From: Deltaproteobacteria bacterium HGW-Deltaproteobacteria-2
Lineage (GTDB): Bacteria; Desulfobacterota; Syntrophia; Syntrophales; Smithellaceae
Assembly: GCA_002840505.1 (NCBI GenBank)
Contig: PHBC01000001.1
Coordinates: 703,738 to 767,737 of the forward strand
Direction: 5' to 3'
DNA: 64,000 nt
Made by a program: the position numbers and the translations under genes. The notes under the pieces are model-generated. The model searched no databases. It was not told the origin of the DNA and worked only from the letters and a program-made list of their open reading frames with translations. Positions 8,895-12,832 of the stretch are shown here, in pieces; position 1 is the stretch's first letter; each line of letters begins with the position of its first letter.

Positions 8895-9020
8895 CATTAG
8901 GTGCGTGTCCCCCGCTGGCGGGGGATTAAGGGGGTGGATGTGTTAATGTGTCGTTTTTTTACAAGTTATATGTCCACCTCTGTCCCGATTCCTCATCGGG
9001 ACACCTCCGCCAACGGAGGA
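8895..9020. repeat. cluster of GC-rich palindromic intergenic modules (REP-like)
   Basis: Hairpins TCCCCCG-N4-CGGGGGA (8908-8925), GTCCCGAT-N5-ATCGGGAC (8982-9002) and CCTCCG-N4-CGGAGG (9004-9019), plus TTTTTACAAG (8956-8965). The CCCGAT...ATCGGG and TTTTTACRAAG modules recur at 18.5, 24.2 and 27.7 kb. Confidence 0.45.
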
Positions 9021-9030
9021 TACTGTGGTA

Positions 9031-10614
9031 TTATTTAATGTTGAGATTTTTCTCCTTACTCAGTTTATACTCAATACTGTCTACAAGAGCCTGCCAGCTG
9101 GCCTCAATAATATTTTCAGAAACACCGATGGTGCTCCAAAACTCTTCGCCGTCGGTCGAATCCAGAAGCACCCTGACTCCCGCGGCTGTTCCTTCCGAAC
9201 CTTCCAGTGTGCGGACTTTGAAATCTACCAGATGCATATCCTTGATTTGCGGATAAAATTTAGTAAGCGCTTTACGCAGGGCATGATCCAGAGCATTCAC
9301 CGGACCGTTTCCTTCGGCAGCGGTTAATTCTTCTTCGCCTGCAACAGATATTTTAATTGTTGCCTGAGAAAGGCACGGATTGTTCTCCGTGCGTGAAGTA
9401 ATAACACTGAAACATTCCAGATTAAAGGGTTCGATAAATTCACCAATAGTTTTTTTGATCAGCAAAGAAAGCGACCCGTCGGCGGCATCAAACTGAAATC
9501 CGCGGTCTTCCATAAGTTTTACTTCATGCACTATCTTTTTGCTAAGGGCGTCATCTTTAGAAATGTCAATGCCCAATTCCTTGGCTTTATATTCAACATT
9601 GCTTTTGCCCGCCAGATCGGAAACTAAAACGCGCCGGTGATTGCCGACAAGTTCCGGTTCAATATGCTCATAGGCGATGGAGTTTTTGACTACAGCACTG
9701 ACATGGACTCCCCCCTTATGCGCGAACGCGCTTCGTCCGACAAACGGCCGCGAATTAAGCGGCGGAACGTTGGCAACATCACTTACATAATGAGAAAGGC
9801 TGGTGAGCTGTTTGATTGATTCAGGCGGCAGACAATTTTTACCCAATTTCAATTGTAAATTGGCAATTAGCGTTATCAAATCGGCGTTGCCACATCTTTC
9901 ACCATAACCGTTGATCGTTCCCTGAACCATGGCTACCCCTTCCTGCACTGCGGCAATGGAATTCGCCACAGCAAGTCCGCCGTCATTGTGCGTGTGGATT
10001 GCGGCAGAAGTTAAGGGGAGGGAAGAAGAAATTTTTTTCACGATGGTACAAATTTCATGAGGGAGAGAACCACCGTTGGTATCGCAAAGAACAATAAAAT
10101 CCGCTCCGGCGGCCAGTGCCGTTTTCACAACTTTGGTTGTGTAGCGGGGATTATTTTTATAACCGTCGAAAAAATGTTCGGCATCAAAAAAAACTTCCTT
10201 ACCCATTGATTTCAGATACTCAATAGAATCGGCAATCATCGCCAGGTTTTCATTCAGGTCGGTTTTAAGAATTTCAGTAACGTGCAAATCCCACGATTTC
10301 CCGACAATAGCAGCGGCAGGAGTGCCTGCTTTCACCAAAGCTTTTAAATTCGGACACGACTCCGTTTTGGTATGCGCACGGCGCGTACTGCCGAACGCGG
10401 TCAGACGCGAATTTTTAAAATTAACGGCTTTGGCCATTTCGAAAAAACGCATATCTTTGGGATTGGAACCGGGCCAACCGCCTTCAATGTAGTGAAAATG
10501 AACATCATCAAGGCGCTGGGCAATGCGTAATTTTTCCTCTGCCGAAAAATTTGTCTGCTCTCCCTGTGTACCATCTCGTAAAGTTGTGTCATAAATCAGT
10601 ACTTTGTTTTTCAT
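9031..10614 (-). CDS. cimA: (R)-citramalate synthase (LeuA/CimA family, long form with C-terminal regulatory domain)
   Basis: MKNKVLIYDTTLRDGTQGEQTNFSAEEKLRIAQRLDDVHFHYIEGGWPGSNPKD matches the CimA-type subgroup. Start trimmed to the ATG at comp. 10614. Confidence 0.8.
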   Translation of the reverse strand: MKNKVLIYDTTLRDGTQGEQTNFSAEEKLRIAQRLDDVHFHYIEGGWPGSNPKDMRFFEMAKAVNFKNSRLTAFGSTRRAHTKTESCPNLKALVKAGTPAAAIVGKSWDLHVTEILKTDLNENLAMIADSIEYLKSMGKEVFFDAEHFFDGYKNNPRYTTKVVKTALAAGADFIVLCDTNGGSLPHEICTIVKKISSSLPLTSAAIHTHNDGGLAVANSIAAVQEGVAMVQGTINGYGERCGNADLITLIANLQLKLGKNCLPPESIKQLTSLSHYVSDVANVPPLNSRPFVGRSAFAHKGGVHVSAVVKNSIAYEHIEPELVGNHRRVLVSDLAGKSNVEYKAKELGIDISKDDALSKKIVHEVKLMEDRGFQFDAADGSLSLLIKKTIGEFIEPFNLECFSVITSRTENNPCLSQATIKISVAGEEELTAAEGNGPVNALDHALRKALTKFYPQIKDMHLVDFKVRTLEGSEGTAAGVRVLLDSTDGEEFWSTIGVSENIIEASWQALVDSIEYKLSKEKNLNIK

Positions 10615-10777
10615 TTTCCTCTCTCCTTCAAAACCACCGCTTTGCGGAATTGTTCCCAATAGCCTATGACTATTTGGATAATTCGACTAACGCTTAAAAC
10701 TTCACTAAGTTCGTTTTAAGCTTGTCTCATTATGATTAGCCAATTTCAGTGCTCTACGCTTCTGAAATTGGGATCTC

Positions 10778-10815
10778 ATAAAAAATCCGCTGCCGGGCTT
10801 GCCTGGCAGCGGATT
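10778..10815 (-). terminator. intrinsic terminator inside the cimA 5' leader (attenuator candidate)
   Basis: The minus strand reads AATCCGCTGCC-AGGCAAGCCC-GGCAGCGGATT followed by TTTTTTAT. No gene lies upstream on this strand, so it sits in the leader. Confidence 0.6.
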
Positions 10816-10841
10816 AAATTTTTGTTTATTTAGAGTTGATA

Positions 10842-10922
10842 CTATTCCGCGACCCGGCCTCCTGTAAAGAAGCTAATTATAATGTTGCTAATTATTATTT
10901 CTTGAATTTTGATCATGTTCAT
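10842..10922 (-). CDS. putative Ile-rich leader peptide (26 codons)
   Basis: My translation is MNMIKIQEIIISNIIISFFTGGRVAE*. Eight of 26 codons are Ile (ATC/ATT/ATA), including two III runs. It lies between a good promoter and the terminator. Confidence 0.5.
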   Translation of the reverse strand: MNMIKIQEIIISNIIISFFTGGRVAE

Positions 10923-10944
10923 AGCGCCAACCATCTTTTTTTAC

Positions 10945-10973
10945 ATAATAATTTTTTAGGTAAATTTTGTCAA
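10945..10973 (-). promoter_or_regulatory. sigma70-type promoter for the cimA leader
   Basis: Minus strand: TTGACA (comp. 10973-10968), 17-nt spacer, TATTAT (comp. 10950-10945). It ends 22 nt upstream of the leader ATG. Confidence 0.5.
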
Positions 10974-11155
10974 TAGAAATAATTAATTGAATTTATGTTG
11001 ACGAAGTTTTATATTATTACTACAAATTATTTTTTCACAGATCGAAAAAAATATTTCCACAAATTGCCGTATGGAATTTCACATATAATATATTATGACT
11101 TGTATCAGACCATATGTCTTAAATACTATTAAAAATTAATCAGCGGAGTAACCAA

Positions 11156-12832
11156 ATGAAACGAGTTATTTCAGGATTTCTCATTGTAACGATAGGAATA
11201 ATCATGTTTGGGTGTTCGAAGATAGATAGTCCTCCAAACAACGCCAAAGCCATCACTGAATTTAAGTTTATAAGTCAGGATGCAACCGGAATCATCACAG
11301 AGACAACGCACACTATAGCCATAACCGTGCCGTATGGAACGGACGTAACATCTCTGATTCCGACGATTACTCATACGGGCACAAGCATCAGTCCGGCTTC
11401 GGGAGAGACACAAAACTTTACGAACCCTGTAACTTACACCGTGACAGCCGCGGATGGTTCAACCCAAACCTACCAAGTTACAGTGACGCCCGCAATAAAC
11501 CCTGCTAAAGCCATTACAGCCTTTAATTTTATAAGCCCGGTAACGGCAACTGGAGTCATTACGGAAGCAGATCATACAATAACAATCACCGTACCGTATG
11601 GAACGGATGTAAAATCTCTAACTCCAACAATTATTCATACAGGCGTCAGCGTCAGTCCCGCTTCGGGAGTGGCGCACGACTTTACCAATCCTGCAACTTA
11701 TACCGTTACAGCCGCAAATTCCTCCACGCAGGCATACACGGTGACAGTCACTCAGTCGATTACAGCTAAAGCCATTACAGCCTTTAATTTCACTAACCCT
11801 TCGGCAACAGGTATTATTACAGAATTATCACATACAATTGCTGTAACAGTGCCAGCTGGAACGGACGTAAAAACTCTAACTCCAACAATTACGCATACAG
11901 GCGTCAGTGTCAATCCCGCTTCGGGAGTGGCACACGACTTTACCGATCCCGCGACTTATACTGTAACAGCCGGAGATTCTTCAACCCAGGATTATATAGT
12001 AACTGTAACAATATGGACTCCTATCTCAGGAATGATCCCGGTTCCCTCCGGAATCTTCAGTCGAGATGGTGTGTCTGGCAATGATAGTACCGTCTCAGCT
12101 TTCCAGATGAGTGACAAGGAGATTACCAGGAGCCTGTTTACCACGGTAACTGCACTGCCCGATCCCAGTGACACACGCTATACAAATGATACCAACGACC
12201 CTGTACAAATGGTTAAATGGTATCATGCCCTGGTATTCTGCAACAAACTCAGTGCGTTGGAAGGTCGAACTCCCGTGTACTCCATCAAAGGCAGTACGGA
12301 TCCTACCGTGTGGATCGCCGCCAACGGAGGAGTCGTACCGACCGCTACCAATGCCGATTGGGACGCGGTTACTGCAAACTGGTTAGCTGATGGCTACCGC
12401 CTGCCAACGGAAATGGAATGGATGTGGGCGGCTATGGGAGCAGATACAGTTAACCCTGGAAACCCAAATACAACGGGCTATGCCAAGACCTTTGCCGGAA
12501 GCACAGGAAGCAATGCCATTGGAAATTATGCCTGGACAAGTGAAAACAGCAGCGGAACAACCCACCCCACAGGAACCAAGCTGCCCAACGAACTTGGCTT
12601 ATACGATATGAGTGGAAATGTGTTTGAATGGTGCTGGGATTGGTGGACAAATACTTATCCATCGGGAGTATTGACGGACTACAGGGGAGCAGTTTCCGGC
12701 ACTACCCGAGTCGCACACGGCGGCACTTTTCTATTTGGGGCCAGCCCTTTTGCATCGATTGCCTATCGTAACTTCGGTGGCCCGTCTGTCGGATACAGCA
12801 TTGCTGGCTTCCGGGTTGTTCGCCAACCTTGA
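11156..12832 (+). CDS. lipoprotein: 3 tandem Ig-like beta-sandwich modules + formylglycine-generating-enzyme (SUMF1/FGE-sulfatase) domain
   Basis: Lipobox IMFGC. Three ~85-aa modules (AKAIT.F.F...TI.ITVPYGTDV..L.PTI.HTG.S.SPASG...FTNP.TYTVTA...). C-terminal GYRLPTEMEWMWAA and GLYDMSGNVFEWCWDWW are FGE-family motifs. Confidence 0.75.
   Translation: MKRVISGFLIVTIGIIMFGCSKIDSPPNNAKAITEFKFISQDATGIITETTHTIAITVPYGTDVTSLIPTITHTGTSISPASGETQNFTNPVTYTVTAADGSTQTYQVTVTPAINPAKAITAFNFISPVTATGVITEADHTITITVPYGTDVKSLTPTIIHTGVSVSPASGVAHDFTNPATYTVTAANSSTQAYTVTVTQSITAKAITAFNFTNPSATGIITELSHTIAVTVPAGTDVKTLTPTITHTGVSVNPASGVAHDFTDPATYTVTAGDSSTQDYIVTVTIWTPISGMIPVPSGIFSRDGVSGNDSTVSAFQMSDKEITRSLFTTVTALPDPSDTRYTNDTNDPVQMVKWYHALVFCNKLSALEGRTPVYSIKGSTDPTVWIAANGGVVPTATNADWDAVTANWLADGYRLPTEMEWMWAAMGADTVNPGNPNTTGYAKTFAGSTGSNAIGNYAWTSENSSGTTHPTGTKLPNELGLYDMSGNVFEWCWDWWTNTYPSGVLTDYRGAVSGTTRVAHGGTFLFGASPFASIAYRNFGGPSVGYSIAGFRVVRQP
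11243..12010 (+). repeat. 3 x ~261-264 bp in-frame tandem coding repeats
   Basis: Modules span aa 30-111, 117-199 and 205-285. Copies 2 and 3 are also highly similar at nucleotide level (for example GCTAAAGCCATTACAGCCTTTAATTT occurs in both). Confidence 0.8.

Follow-up and report, generated by a model that had tools for sequence, protein, structure and literature searches.

In Escherichia coli and Salmonella, the ilvGMEDA and ilvBN operons are preceded by multivalent leaders, with isoleucine (Ile), Leu, and Val codons in ilvL and Val and Leu codons in ivbL, and the E. coli thrL leader has codons for Thr and for Ile, Thr being the precursor of Ile in the threonine-dependent route. A protector, or anti-antiterminator, helix is present in the trp, his, and leu attenuators. 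The threonine-independent (citramalate) route to Ile is used by many anaerobes, methanogens, spirochaetes, and Geobacter; citramalate synthase (CimA) is its committed entry enzyme, and, to our knowledge, the control described for CimA is allosteric inhibition by Ile. Enterobacteria are not known to have cimA. Leader-peptide attenuators of leuA and ilvB have been reported from actinobacteria (PMC1262725), and for the Corynebacterium glutamicum ilvBNC attenuator a three-hairpin model, in which the third hairpin is an anti-antiterminator (PMC11857589), and a conserved upstream open reading frame (ORF) (PMC10272879) have been presented. Firmicute ilv-leu attenuators include the Leu-rich attenuator peptide of Staphylococcus aureus (PMC5794164) and the ilv leader of Listeria monocytogenes (PMC5864092), and a Geobacter genome paper reports a Leu-specific T-box upstream of leuA only (PMC2700814). 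The element described here lies upstream of cimA in a 64,000-nucleotide (nt) stretch of contig PHBC01000001.1, referred to at its full length as the window, from a Smithella (Thermodesulfobacteriota; Syntrophia; Syntrophales; Smithellaceae). It is very probably a classical ribosome-mediated leader-peptide attenuator that couples cimA transcription to charged tRNA-Ile. Literature searches found no account of an attenuator or leader peptide for cimA or its product, although older in-silico comparative surveys may hold a mention.

Ile-rich leader ORF and terminator upstream of cimA

On the minus strand of the window, a near-consensus promoter is followed by a 26-codon Ile-rich ORF, an intrinsic terminator, and cimA. 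The preliminary description of this DNA had reported the promoter (TTGACA-17 nt-TATTAT, 10973-10945) and an Ile-rich mini-ORF from 10922 with Ile at 8 of 26 codons, and both are present there. The leader ORF, encoding MNMIKIQEIIISNIIISFFTGGRVAE (10842-10922), opens with an ATG at 10922, 22 nt 3' of the -10 box, and ends with a TAG at 10844-10842. Its Ile codons include two runs of three, ATA ATA ATT at codons 9 to 11 (10890-10898) and ATT ATA ATT at codons 14 to 16 (10875-10883). Ile makes up 31% of leader residues versus 8.4% in the long ORFs of the window, while Leu (3.8%) and Val (4.8%) are not enriched; the leader is therefore Ile specific, which fits a gene serving only Ile synthesis. The terminator hairpin, AATCCGCTGCC-N10-GGCAGCGGATT (10815-10784), starts 26 nt after the leader stop. 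This hairpin had also been noted before, with a tract given as TTTTTTAT after ...GGATT; that reading counted two T's twice, and the uridine (U) tract is in fact T6 (10785-10780), its first two T's doubling as the last two stem bases. The intergenic region is 541 nt long and divergent, the opposite gene starting at 11156 on the plus strand, so that the terminator is placed within a 5' leader and not at a gene end. A scan of the minus strand of the window found no promoter-like site between the terminator and cimA.

The gene behind the leader (9031-10614, ATG at 10614) encodes a 527-amino-acid protein scoring 742 bits against the (R)-citramalate synthase equivalog TIGR00977, for which the cut-off is 450. 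Its homologues are annotated as citramalate synthases with a PF08502 LeuA_dimer regulatory domain.

A run of Ile codons of this kind could in principle be a product of base composition, AT-rich intergenic DNA giving ATT/ATA-rich frames with a hairpin behind them by coincidence. From its base composition (68% A+T), the intergenic DNA is expected to have 9.4% Ile codons. The probability of at least 8 Ile in 26 codons is then ~0.002 for a single ORF, nothing remarkable on the scale of a genome. When the whole window was scanned for mini-ORFs with amino acid runs, the only other Ile-rich one was MECIIQIRIIISILILIRNK... (29 residues; 30480-30391, minus strand), which sits in an AT-rich stretch, antisense to where a plus-strand gene ends, and has no gene downstream. 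It was treated as a chance occurrence and a negative control. A search for a second copy of the leader in the 64-kb window found none. The case for more than chance was weak and not convincing from the window alone, and comparison with relatives was therefore needed.

Conservation among Smithellaceae and other Syntrophales

A genome collection scanned with the CimA protein yielded 80 loci whose CimA was 71 to 97% identical, all from Smithella, Smithellaceae, or unclassified Syntrophales or "Deltaproteobacteria" metagenome-assembled genomes, with Smithella sp. SCADC as the top match. A first protein homologue search listed only proteins at least 79% identical and brought in no further taxa; a second one, with the protein of locus L080, and four contig look-ups extended the taxonomic range. 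An automatic filter for Ile-rich ORFs was passed by 77 of the 80 loci, and four of the 80 had too little upstream sequence. Three loci were removed, namely L023 (a spurious pass with too little upstream DNA), L069 (too short), and L011 (a run of N). The alignment used (A1) holds 74 distinct sequences, the window included, and a second alignment (A2) adds four outgroup sequences to it.

Nearly all loci with enough upstream DNA had an Ile-rich mini-ORF before cimA. The layout seen in the window recurred in 73 other distinct Smithellaceae/Syntrophales cimA loci and in four further Syntrophales loci, including one from a Syntrophus sp. Examples of the leader peptides are MNTIIIRKIIISNIIISFSIGGLVAE, MKKDIRAIIIINIIISFCIGGRGAV, MSIISIAIIIISIIIISFPIGSLAVE, and MMIHTETIITNIIVCFRMGGLAVE; those of the most distant loci among the 80 are MKSRFAIIIISSIIIQAAHIPA and MANIITRSIIIIEGIISPSDMGT. 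In three of the four further Syntrophales loci the leader was likewise Ile rich (MNADATAMISIGIIIRPEDTGGLMMR, MTVRAIISRHIILGGIIRPEHRGGLIAV, and MHFTSLNAIIGIIIIGIIRPEDTGA); that of L083 was Ile poor. The preliminary description had set against its own proposal a mini-ORF absent from relatives or not enriched in Ile there; the opposite was found, across ~75 loci. The gene 5' of the leader encodes a lipoprotein with an FGE domain in the window and varies by locus (cytidylyltransferase, histidine kinase, biotin-lipoyl protein, or HDOD protein), while the leader-cimA unit stays intact and is usually followed by a Sua5/TsaC-family gene.

The promoter is conserved with the unit. In the 74-sequence alignment, TATTGACAAA at the -35 region was almost invariant, and a TAnnAT box with 17-nt spacing was kept. 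In the window, the -35 box TTGACA (10968-10973) and, 17 nt 3' of it, the -10 box TATTAT (10945-10950) agree with the consensus at 11 of 12 positions, and the site was the top promoter-like site of a scan of 8-12 kb of the window. By sequence, the leader promoter is a conserved sigma-70-type promoter, and its position predicts a transcription start near 10938.

With the ORF, its frame, the Ile positions, the promoter, and both of the helices discussed below kept in ~75 loci despite diverged noncoding flanks, and with covariation in the helices, chance is untenable as an explanation and is left with practically no probability. The element is real and conserved and, as judged by this comparison, almost certainly functional.

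Two side observations concern the loci themselves. L001 and L066, both on contigs of one metagenome-assembled genome, Smithella sp. SCADC, have cimA products 97% and 78% identical to the CimA of the window, each with its own Ile leader, and represent either two populations binned together or two paralogues. In L011 (~2270-2440), the spacer and terminator sequence stands on both sides of a run of N; this assembly gap is probably a scaffolding artefact at a hairpin insertion.

Selection on decoding and on RNA within the leader ORF

The six core Ile codons were conserved as Ile rather than as nucleotides. Codons 9, 10, and 11 encoded Ile in 64, 73, and 71 of the 74 sequences, and codons 14, 15, and 16 in 67, 74, and 73. 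Across these positions ATA, ATT, and ATC interchanged; at codon 9, for example, ATA was used 33 times, ATT 22 times, and ATC 9 times. Because the core Ile codons vary freely among the three synonyms, selection here acts on the decoded residue and not on the RNA sequence. Further Ile codons occurred at positions 4, 6, 12, 13, and 20 in many of the 74 sequences. The 3' part of the ORF followed a different rule: codons 18, 21, and 22 onward (TTC ... GGA GGC CUG GUC GYG GAA UAG) were kept at the nucleotide level, third positions included, reflecting selection on the RNA.

The reading frame itself was also maintained. The ATG stood in the same column in 50 of the 74 sequences and one to two codons away in the rest, and the ORF was 24 to 26 codons long. 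Length differences inside the ORF (L004, L029, and L048) were exactly 3 nt each, with L078 as the exception, whereas indels in the spacer after the stop measured 1, 2, and 5 nt. An alternative in-frame ATG at 10934 would give a 30-amino-acid ORF starting ~4 nt from the predicted transcription start; 10922 was taken as the leader start since it is the position conserved in the alignment.

Several other features of the ORF were recorded. ATA was almost fixed at codon 10 (10895-10893; 55/74) and codon 15 (10880-10878; 64/74), each time followed by ATT. It made up 37% of the core Ile codons versus 24% of the Ile codons in the genes of the window, and ATC was depleted (10% versus 30%). Both Ile runs sit in a direct repeat, ATAATTAGC. 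In many Smithellaceae the leader start codon is preceded by a stretch AAAT-TAGTTATTT-AATGG(T/C)GC (A1 columns ~55-95), which is not present in the nearest relatives of the window and could belong to the ribosome-binding region or bind a protein.

Profile searches with three leader variants against Pfam and NCBIfam returned no family at E values up to 10, and the curated leader-peptide families (ilv, thr, his, leu, trp, and phe leaders) were accordingly rejected as its assignment. Exact look-up of six leader peptide variants in a collection of 15 billion proteins found none of them.

In most loci the leader stop lies 75 to 90 nt from the cimA ATG, and the U-tract ~20 nt from it. In these compact loci a conserved GAAAGnGAGG follows the U-tract directly, and the cimA ATG comes after a further 5 to 7 nt. 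The gap leaves no room for a second promoter, and cimA would therefore be transcribed only by read-through in most loci. This bears on the possibility that the mini-ORF is a gene in its own right, encoding a small hydrophobic product, membrane located or type I toxin-like, with the hairpin as its terminator and cimA transcribed separately. The peptide is hydrophobic (IIISNIIISFF) and conserved, and the ORF has a promoter and a terminator of its own. Such a gene would, however, leave cimA without space for a promoter in most loci, and it would not be expected to show the observed pattern of constraint: the N-terminal half varies apart from its Ile residues, and the C-terminal third is kept as nucleotides (TTC, GGA, GGC) that are complementary to, and covary with, the terminator arm. 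The element also accompanies cimA always, though the upstream genes differ, and the peptide matched no protein family. An independent peptide gene is thus exceedingly unlikely.

Mutually exclusive terminator and antiterminator helices

The terminator consists of region 3 (AAUCCGCUGCCAGGC, 10801-10815), which is common to both alternative helices, and region 4 (GCCCGGCAGCGGAUU plus the T6 tract, 10780-10798). Its 11-base-pair (bp) stem is extended by 2 inner pairs. The cells of the terminator helix were paired at 95.9% in A1 and 95.2% in A2, compared with 30 to 58% in slid controls. Five pairs showed changes on both sides, including a U-A/A-U swap (36 versus 28), and neither the pairing nor the covariation was reached in any of 500 shuffles. 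RNAalifold recovered the helix independently, and the hairpin of the window was predicted at ~-22.7 kcal/mol.

As an aside, the hairpin at 10784-10815 is nearly symmetric and is followed on the plus strand by AAATTTTTGT, so that the scan scored a terminator on that strand, into which no plus-strand gene reads. It was listed on the plus strand alone, because an A.C mismatch on the minus strand pushes the loop over the 8-nt limit of the scan.

Region 2, the 5' arm of the antiterminator (GCCGGGUCGCGGA, 10846-10858), comprises codons 22 to 26 and ends 1 nt before the stop. The pairing put forward in the preliminary description, between GCCGGGUCGCGG (10858-10847) and CCGCUGCCAGGC, was reproduced with 9 Watson-Crick pairs, 1 G-U pair, and 2 mismatches over its 12 positions. 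It extends to GCCGGGUCGCGGA (10858-10846) against UCCGCUGCCAGGC (10813-10801). In the family alignments the 13 antiterminator pairs were 78.6 to 79.9% paired overall. Nine of the inner pairs, which surround one conserved internal mismatch, were 88 to 100% paired, versus 22 to 51% in slid controls.

Comparison between clades showed that region 2 and region 3 change together. In Smithella the two regions are CCUGGUCGYGG and CCGCUGCCAGG, respectively; they are GGCGCGG and CCGCCGCC in L029, CCUGAUAAUGG and CCGUUAUCAGG in the outgroups and in L080, CCUGGUAGUGG and CCGUUAUCAGG in L078, and CCUGAC and GUCAGG in L079. In L053 they form a perfect 11-bp duplex.

A further hairpin, designated P (GCUUCUU-UAC-AGGAGGC, 10857-10873), lies inside the ORF at codons 17 to 22. 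Across the 74 sequences 93.9% of its cells were paired, and its family form, GCUUCY/GGAGGC, was also predicted independently by RNAalifold. The outgroups have different sequences with a hairpin also at this position, as judged from single-sequence folds only, since their different alignment register barred column-based pair counting. Hairpin P shares no more than 1 to 2 nt with region 2, and predicted folds contain it together with the antiterminator. It may make the polymerase pause, or it may assist the antiterminator by stacking.

These helices by themselves would also serve a switch flipped by a nonribosomal factor, such as a metabolite riboswitch, a T-box-like tRNA sensor, or an RNA-binding protein, with the ORF being incidental. 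Both alternative helices are supported independently of the ORF, and the AAAT-TAGTTATTT-AATGG stretch, which many loci conserve 3' of the -10 box and 5' of the ATG, might bind such a factor. Yet the spacer between the ORF and the terminator is only 26 to 36 nt long, poorly conserved, and A rich, with no conserved structured domain of aptamer size. An untranslated RNA would not be expected to keep the frame, to differ in length by 3 nt, or to vary its Ile codons synonymously. In Rfam searches at E values up to 10, positions 10400-11200 matched none of the leader families (Thr_leader, Leu_leader, His_leader, Trp_leader, and others) and no riboswitch, T-box included, and six related loci gave no such leader family or T-box at the gathering score. 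A T-box riboswitch (RF00230) was rejected as a candidate on the lack of an Rfam hit and on the short, unstructured spacer. A nonribosomal switch is therefore very improbable.

Folding and proposed attenuation mechanism

The preliminary description had suggested folding the leader for mutually exclusive structures, and the switch that it predicted was reproduced when nascent RNA was folded with the stop codon either free or occupied by a ribosome. When the RNA was folded from hairpin P through region 3, hairpin P and the antiterminator formed together in all ten sequences printed. In RNA from the predicted transcription start through region 3, the antiterminator was present in the minimum-energy fold of 53 of the 74 sequences, and other pairings replaced it in the naked RNA of the remaining 21. 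Once the RNA was extended through the U-tract, the terminator formed in all 74 minimum-energy folds. In the window, masking a ribosome placed at Ile11 or Ile16 left the antiterminator intact; masking one at the stop codon (10862-10832) removed it, and the terminator formed once region 4 was added. From hairpin P to the U-tract of the window, the terminator state was predicted at -30.2 kcal/mol and the forced antiterminator state at -24.0 kcal/mol. Because the terminator state is the lower in energy, the switch would be kinetic, as in classical systems.

The spacing of the parts is consistent with control by ribosome position, with the footprint sizes used for the masking and the geometry taken from general knowledge. 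A distance of 16 nt separates the end of the last Ile codon from region 2, which itself stops 1 nt short of the UAG. The terminator, 26 nt past the stop, is beyond the reach of a terminating ribosome. The element has five defining features of ribosome-mediated attenuators that can be examined in silico, namely a promoter-proximal in-frame ORF, clustered codons for the end product, a terminator without a later promoter, an exclusive antiterminator, and this geometry.

In the proposed mechanism, transcription would begin at the promoter at 10973-10945, and a ribosome would translate the 26-codon leader while RNA polymerase proceeds. With Ile plentiful, the ribosome would reach the UAG at 10844-10842 and cover region 2 (10858-10846). 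With region 2 hidden, region 3 (10815-10801) would pair with region 4, and the transcript would end at ~10780, before cimA. When charged tRNA-Ile is scarce, the ribosome would stall in one of the Ile triplets (10898-10890 or 10883-10875), at least 16 nt upstream of region 2. Region 2 would then be free to pair with the emerging region 3, no terminator would form, and the polymerase would read into cimA. Since CimA catalyzes the committed step of threonine-independent Ile synthesis, this would amount to end-product feedback at the level of transcription, on top of the allosteric control that the C-terminal regulatory domain of CimA leads one to expect. The reading of the leader as an Ile-sensing attenuator, as first proposed, is thus supported by the conservation, the synonymous Ile variation, the covariation of the arms, and the masked folding.

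Several observations weigh against this reading. The covariation statistics of the antiterminator are only moderate: its cells with changes on both sides numbered 20, versus 11.9 ± 3.0 in shuffles, a value reached by 2 of 500, and its percentage of pairing was no better than in shuffles. Most positions of the helix are invariant within Smithellaceae, which accounts for the moderate covariation. In the window, region 2 has two mismatches with region 3, and the insertion of a hairpin array (described below) has reduced a U-tract of T8-9 to T6. The leader ORF has a weak Shine-Dalgarno sequence, GAUGGUUGG in the window and, in the consensus, UGGUGC 2 nt before the AUG. No convincing protector (1:2) helix was predicted, and an untranslated RNA is therefore predicted to read through, unlike in trp or his. 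Finally, in some relatives the element appears, from their sequences, to be dispensable or decaying. L054 has no leader, its cimA lying 70 nt after the upstream gene (2400-2500); the leader of L083 (~450-700) has only 3 Ile in its 35-amino-acid ATG-started form, with the promoter and both helices kept; and the leader of L078 (~2360-2460) is frameshifted by a 1- to 2-nt insertion that ends the ORF early.

These points leave a slim chance that the element is coupled to translation without reporting Ile, responding to general translation capacity or only to the minor, ATA-reading tRNA-Ile2, or that the window holds a decaying relic. The excess of ATA among the core Ile codons and its near fixation at codons 10 and 15 fit a tRNA-Ile2 sensor, but ATT and ATC codons, which are read by the major tRNA-Ile, are equally conserved at codons 11, 14, and 16. 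The shortened U-tract, the two mismatches, and the leaders lost or degraded in some relatives are what a relic would be expected to show. The window has nevertheless kept its promoter, its leader ORF, and the two helices intact, and the terminator hairpin retains its predicted stability. The nearest relatives, L001, L002, and L005, keep the same insertion with an intact switch. A classical attenuator reading Ile-tRNA charging remains very much the favored explanation.

Hairpin arrays between the U-tract and cimA

Between the U-tract and the strong cimA ribosome-binding site (GAAGGAGAGAGG, 10618-10629) the window carries an insertion of four hairpins (10634-10779), located at 10771-10740, 10721-10692, 10677-10656, and 10647-10637. 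The preliminary description had noted hairpins in this segment; they are present, but their coordinates were one off, they number four and not two, and they are not part of the switch. The insertion extends the distance from the leader stop to the cimA ATG to 227 nt, versus the 75 to 90 nt of most relatives. It is absent from most relatives, in which the U-tract abuts the cimA ribosome-binding site, and was therefore regarded as lineage variable. A search for other copies in the 64 kb of the window found the block to be single copy, and the idea that the hairpins belong to a window-wide repeat family was rejected.

The same or related blocks, of variable length, were found in ~20 other loci. 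Arrays in or just after the U-tract were seen in L001, L002, L005, L007, L012, L026, L027, L031, L033, L034, L039, L040, L042, L047, L058, L072, L077, and L079. Related arrays lay between the promoter and the leader ORF in L003, L005, L026, and L062, and downstream of cimA in L003 (~+1685 relative to the cimA start) and L022 (~+2324). Their occurrence at several sites indicates elements dispersed in Smithella intergenic DNA. By sequence, the arrays look like mobile elements of the repetitive extragenic palindrome or miniature inverted-repeat transposable element (REP/MITE) kind, with a liking for the U-tract spot.

Typical array units are CCAATTTCAG-AAGCGTAGNGCA-CTGAAATTGG and ATCCCGCAAAGCGGTGG. 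At its end the insert reads ...GCGGTGG and then TTTTGAAGGAG, a sequence similar to the original GCGGATTTTTTTTGAAGGAG junction. Three GC-rich hairpins (CCTCCGTTGGCGGAGG, GTCCCGATGAGGAATCGGGAC, and CCCCCGCCAGCGGGGG; 8905-9025, minus strand) also lie directly 3' of the cimA stop, before the Sua5/TsaC-family gene. All three are without a U-tract, and they may be another hairpin array or an RNA-stabilizing 3' structure.

Three elaborations of the attenuator can be considered. Without a protector helix, it may be default-on, in which case termination would strictly require a ribosome parked on the stop codon. The nearly fixed ATA-ATT codon pairs may allow it to read both tRNA-Ile isoacceptors, including the lysidine-dependent minor one. 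The arrays in the window and ~20 relatives, which add a structured 5' untranslated region of ~150 nt and shorten the U-tract from T8-9 to T6, may re-tune its output. This extended reading is speculative and rather unlikely.

Significance and comparison with known attenuators

The mechanism proposed for the cimA leader is not surprising, and it leaves the understanding of attenuation unchanged. The interest lies in its target, as this is the first transcription-level control that we found in the literature for the citramalate route, and in the occurrence in Syntrophales of a leader that is Ile only. This order, at least, would regulate the citramalate pathway at transcription as well, via tRNA-Ile charging. 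Classical attenuation would be extended to the Thermodesulfobacteriota and to cimA, for neither of which a description was found. In practical terms, the element suggests an annotation rule for ORFs of ~26 codons that gene callers miss, and it may offer engineered isoleucine or citramalate pathways a small, natural part that responds to Ile. Alleles that carry a hairpin insertion at the U-tract, compared with alleles that do not, would form a natural series on how insertions re-tune a terminator.

The cimA leader shares with ilvL and ivbL a promoter-proximal short ORF, clustered codons, overlapping terminator and antiterminator helices, a decision made by ribosome position, and an association with branched-chain amino acid genes. 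Unlike these, it is Ile only, has no clear protector helix, and shows no similarity to them in sequence, by covariance model, or by leader family. The thrL leader belongs to the same class of device and likewise has Ile codons to be read; the cimA leader differs in controlling the threonine-independent route and has no Rfam match.

Parallels are also found beyond the Proteobacteria. The C. glutamicum ilvBNC attenuator and the actinobacterial leuA and ilvB leaders are also cases of branched-chain attenuation outside that group, likewise predicted by comparative genomics and combining an overlapping terminator and antiterminator with a third, upstream hairpin. In contrast to the C. glutamicum hairpin, hairpin P of the cimA leader overlaps region 2 by 1 to 2 nt and coexists with the antiterminator, and the gene, the phylum, and the codons differ. 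With the S. aureus and L. monocytogenes leaders the cimA leader has in common ribosome-mediated branched-chain attenuation in which one amino acid is dominant; the regulatory amino acid and the targets differ, those leaders work in concert with CodY, and the sequences are unrelated. The Geobacter leuA T-box likewise exerts control by premature termination through sensing of tRNA charging, on a synthase of the LeuA/CimA family and in a related lineage formerly placed in the deltaproteobacteria. It differs from the cimA leader in binding tRNA directly, without translation, and in controlling leuA, and no T-box is detectable at the cimA leader, where the charging of tRNA-Ile would instead be read by a translating ribosome.

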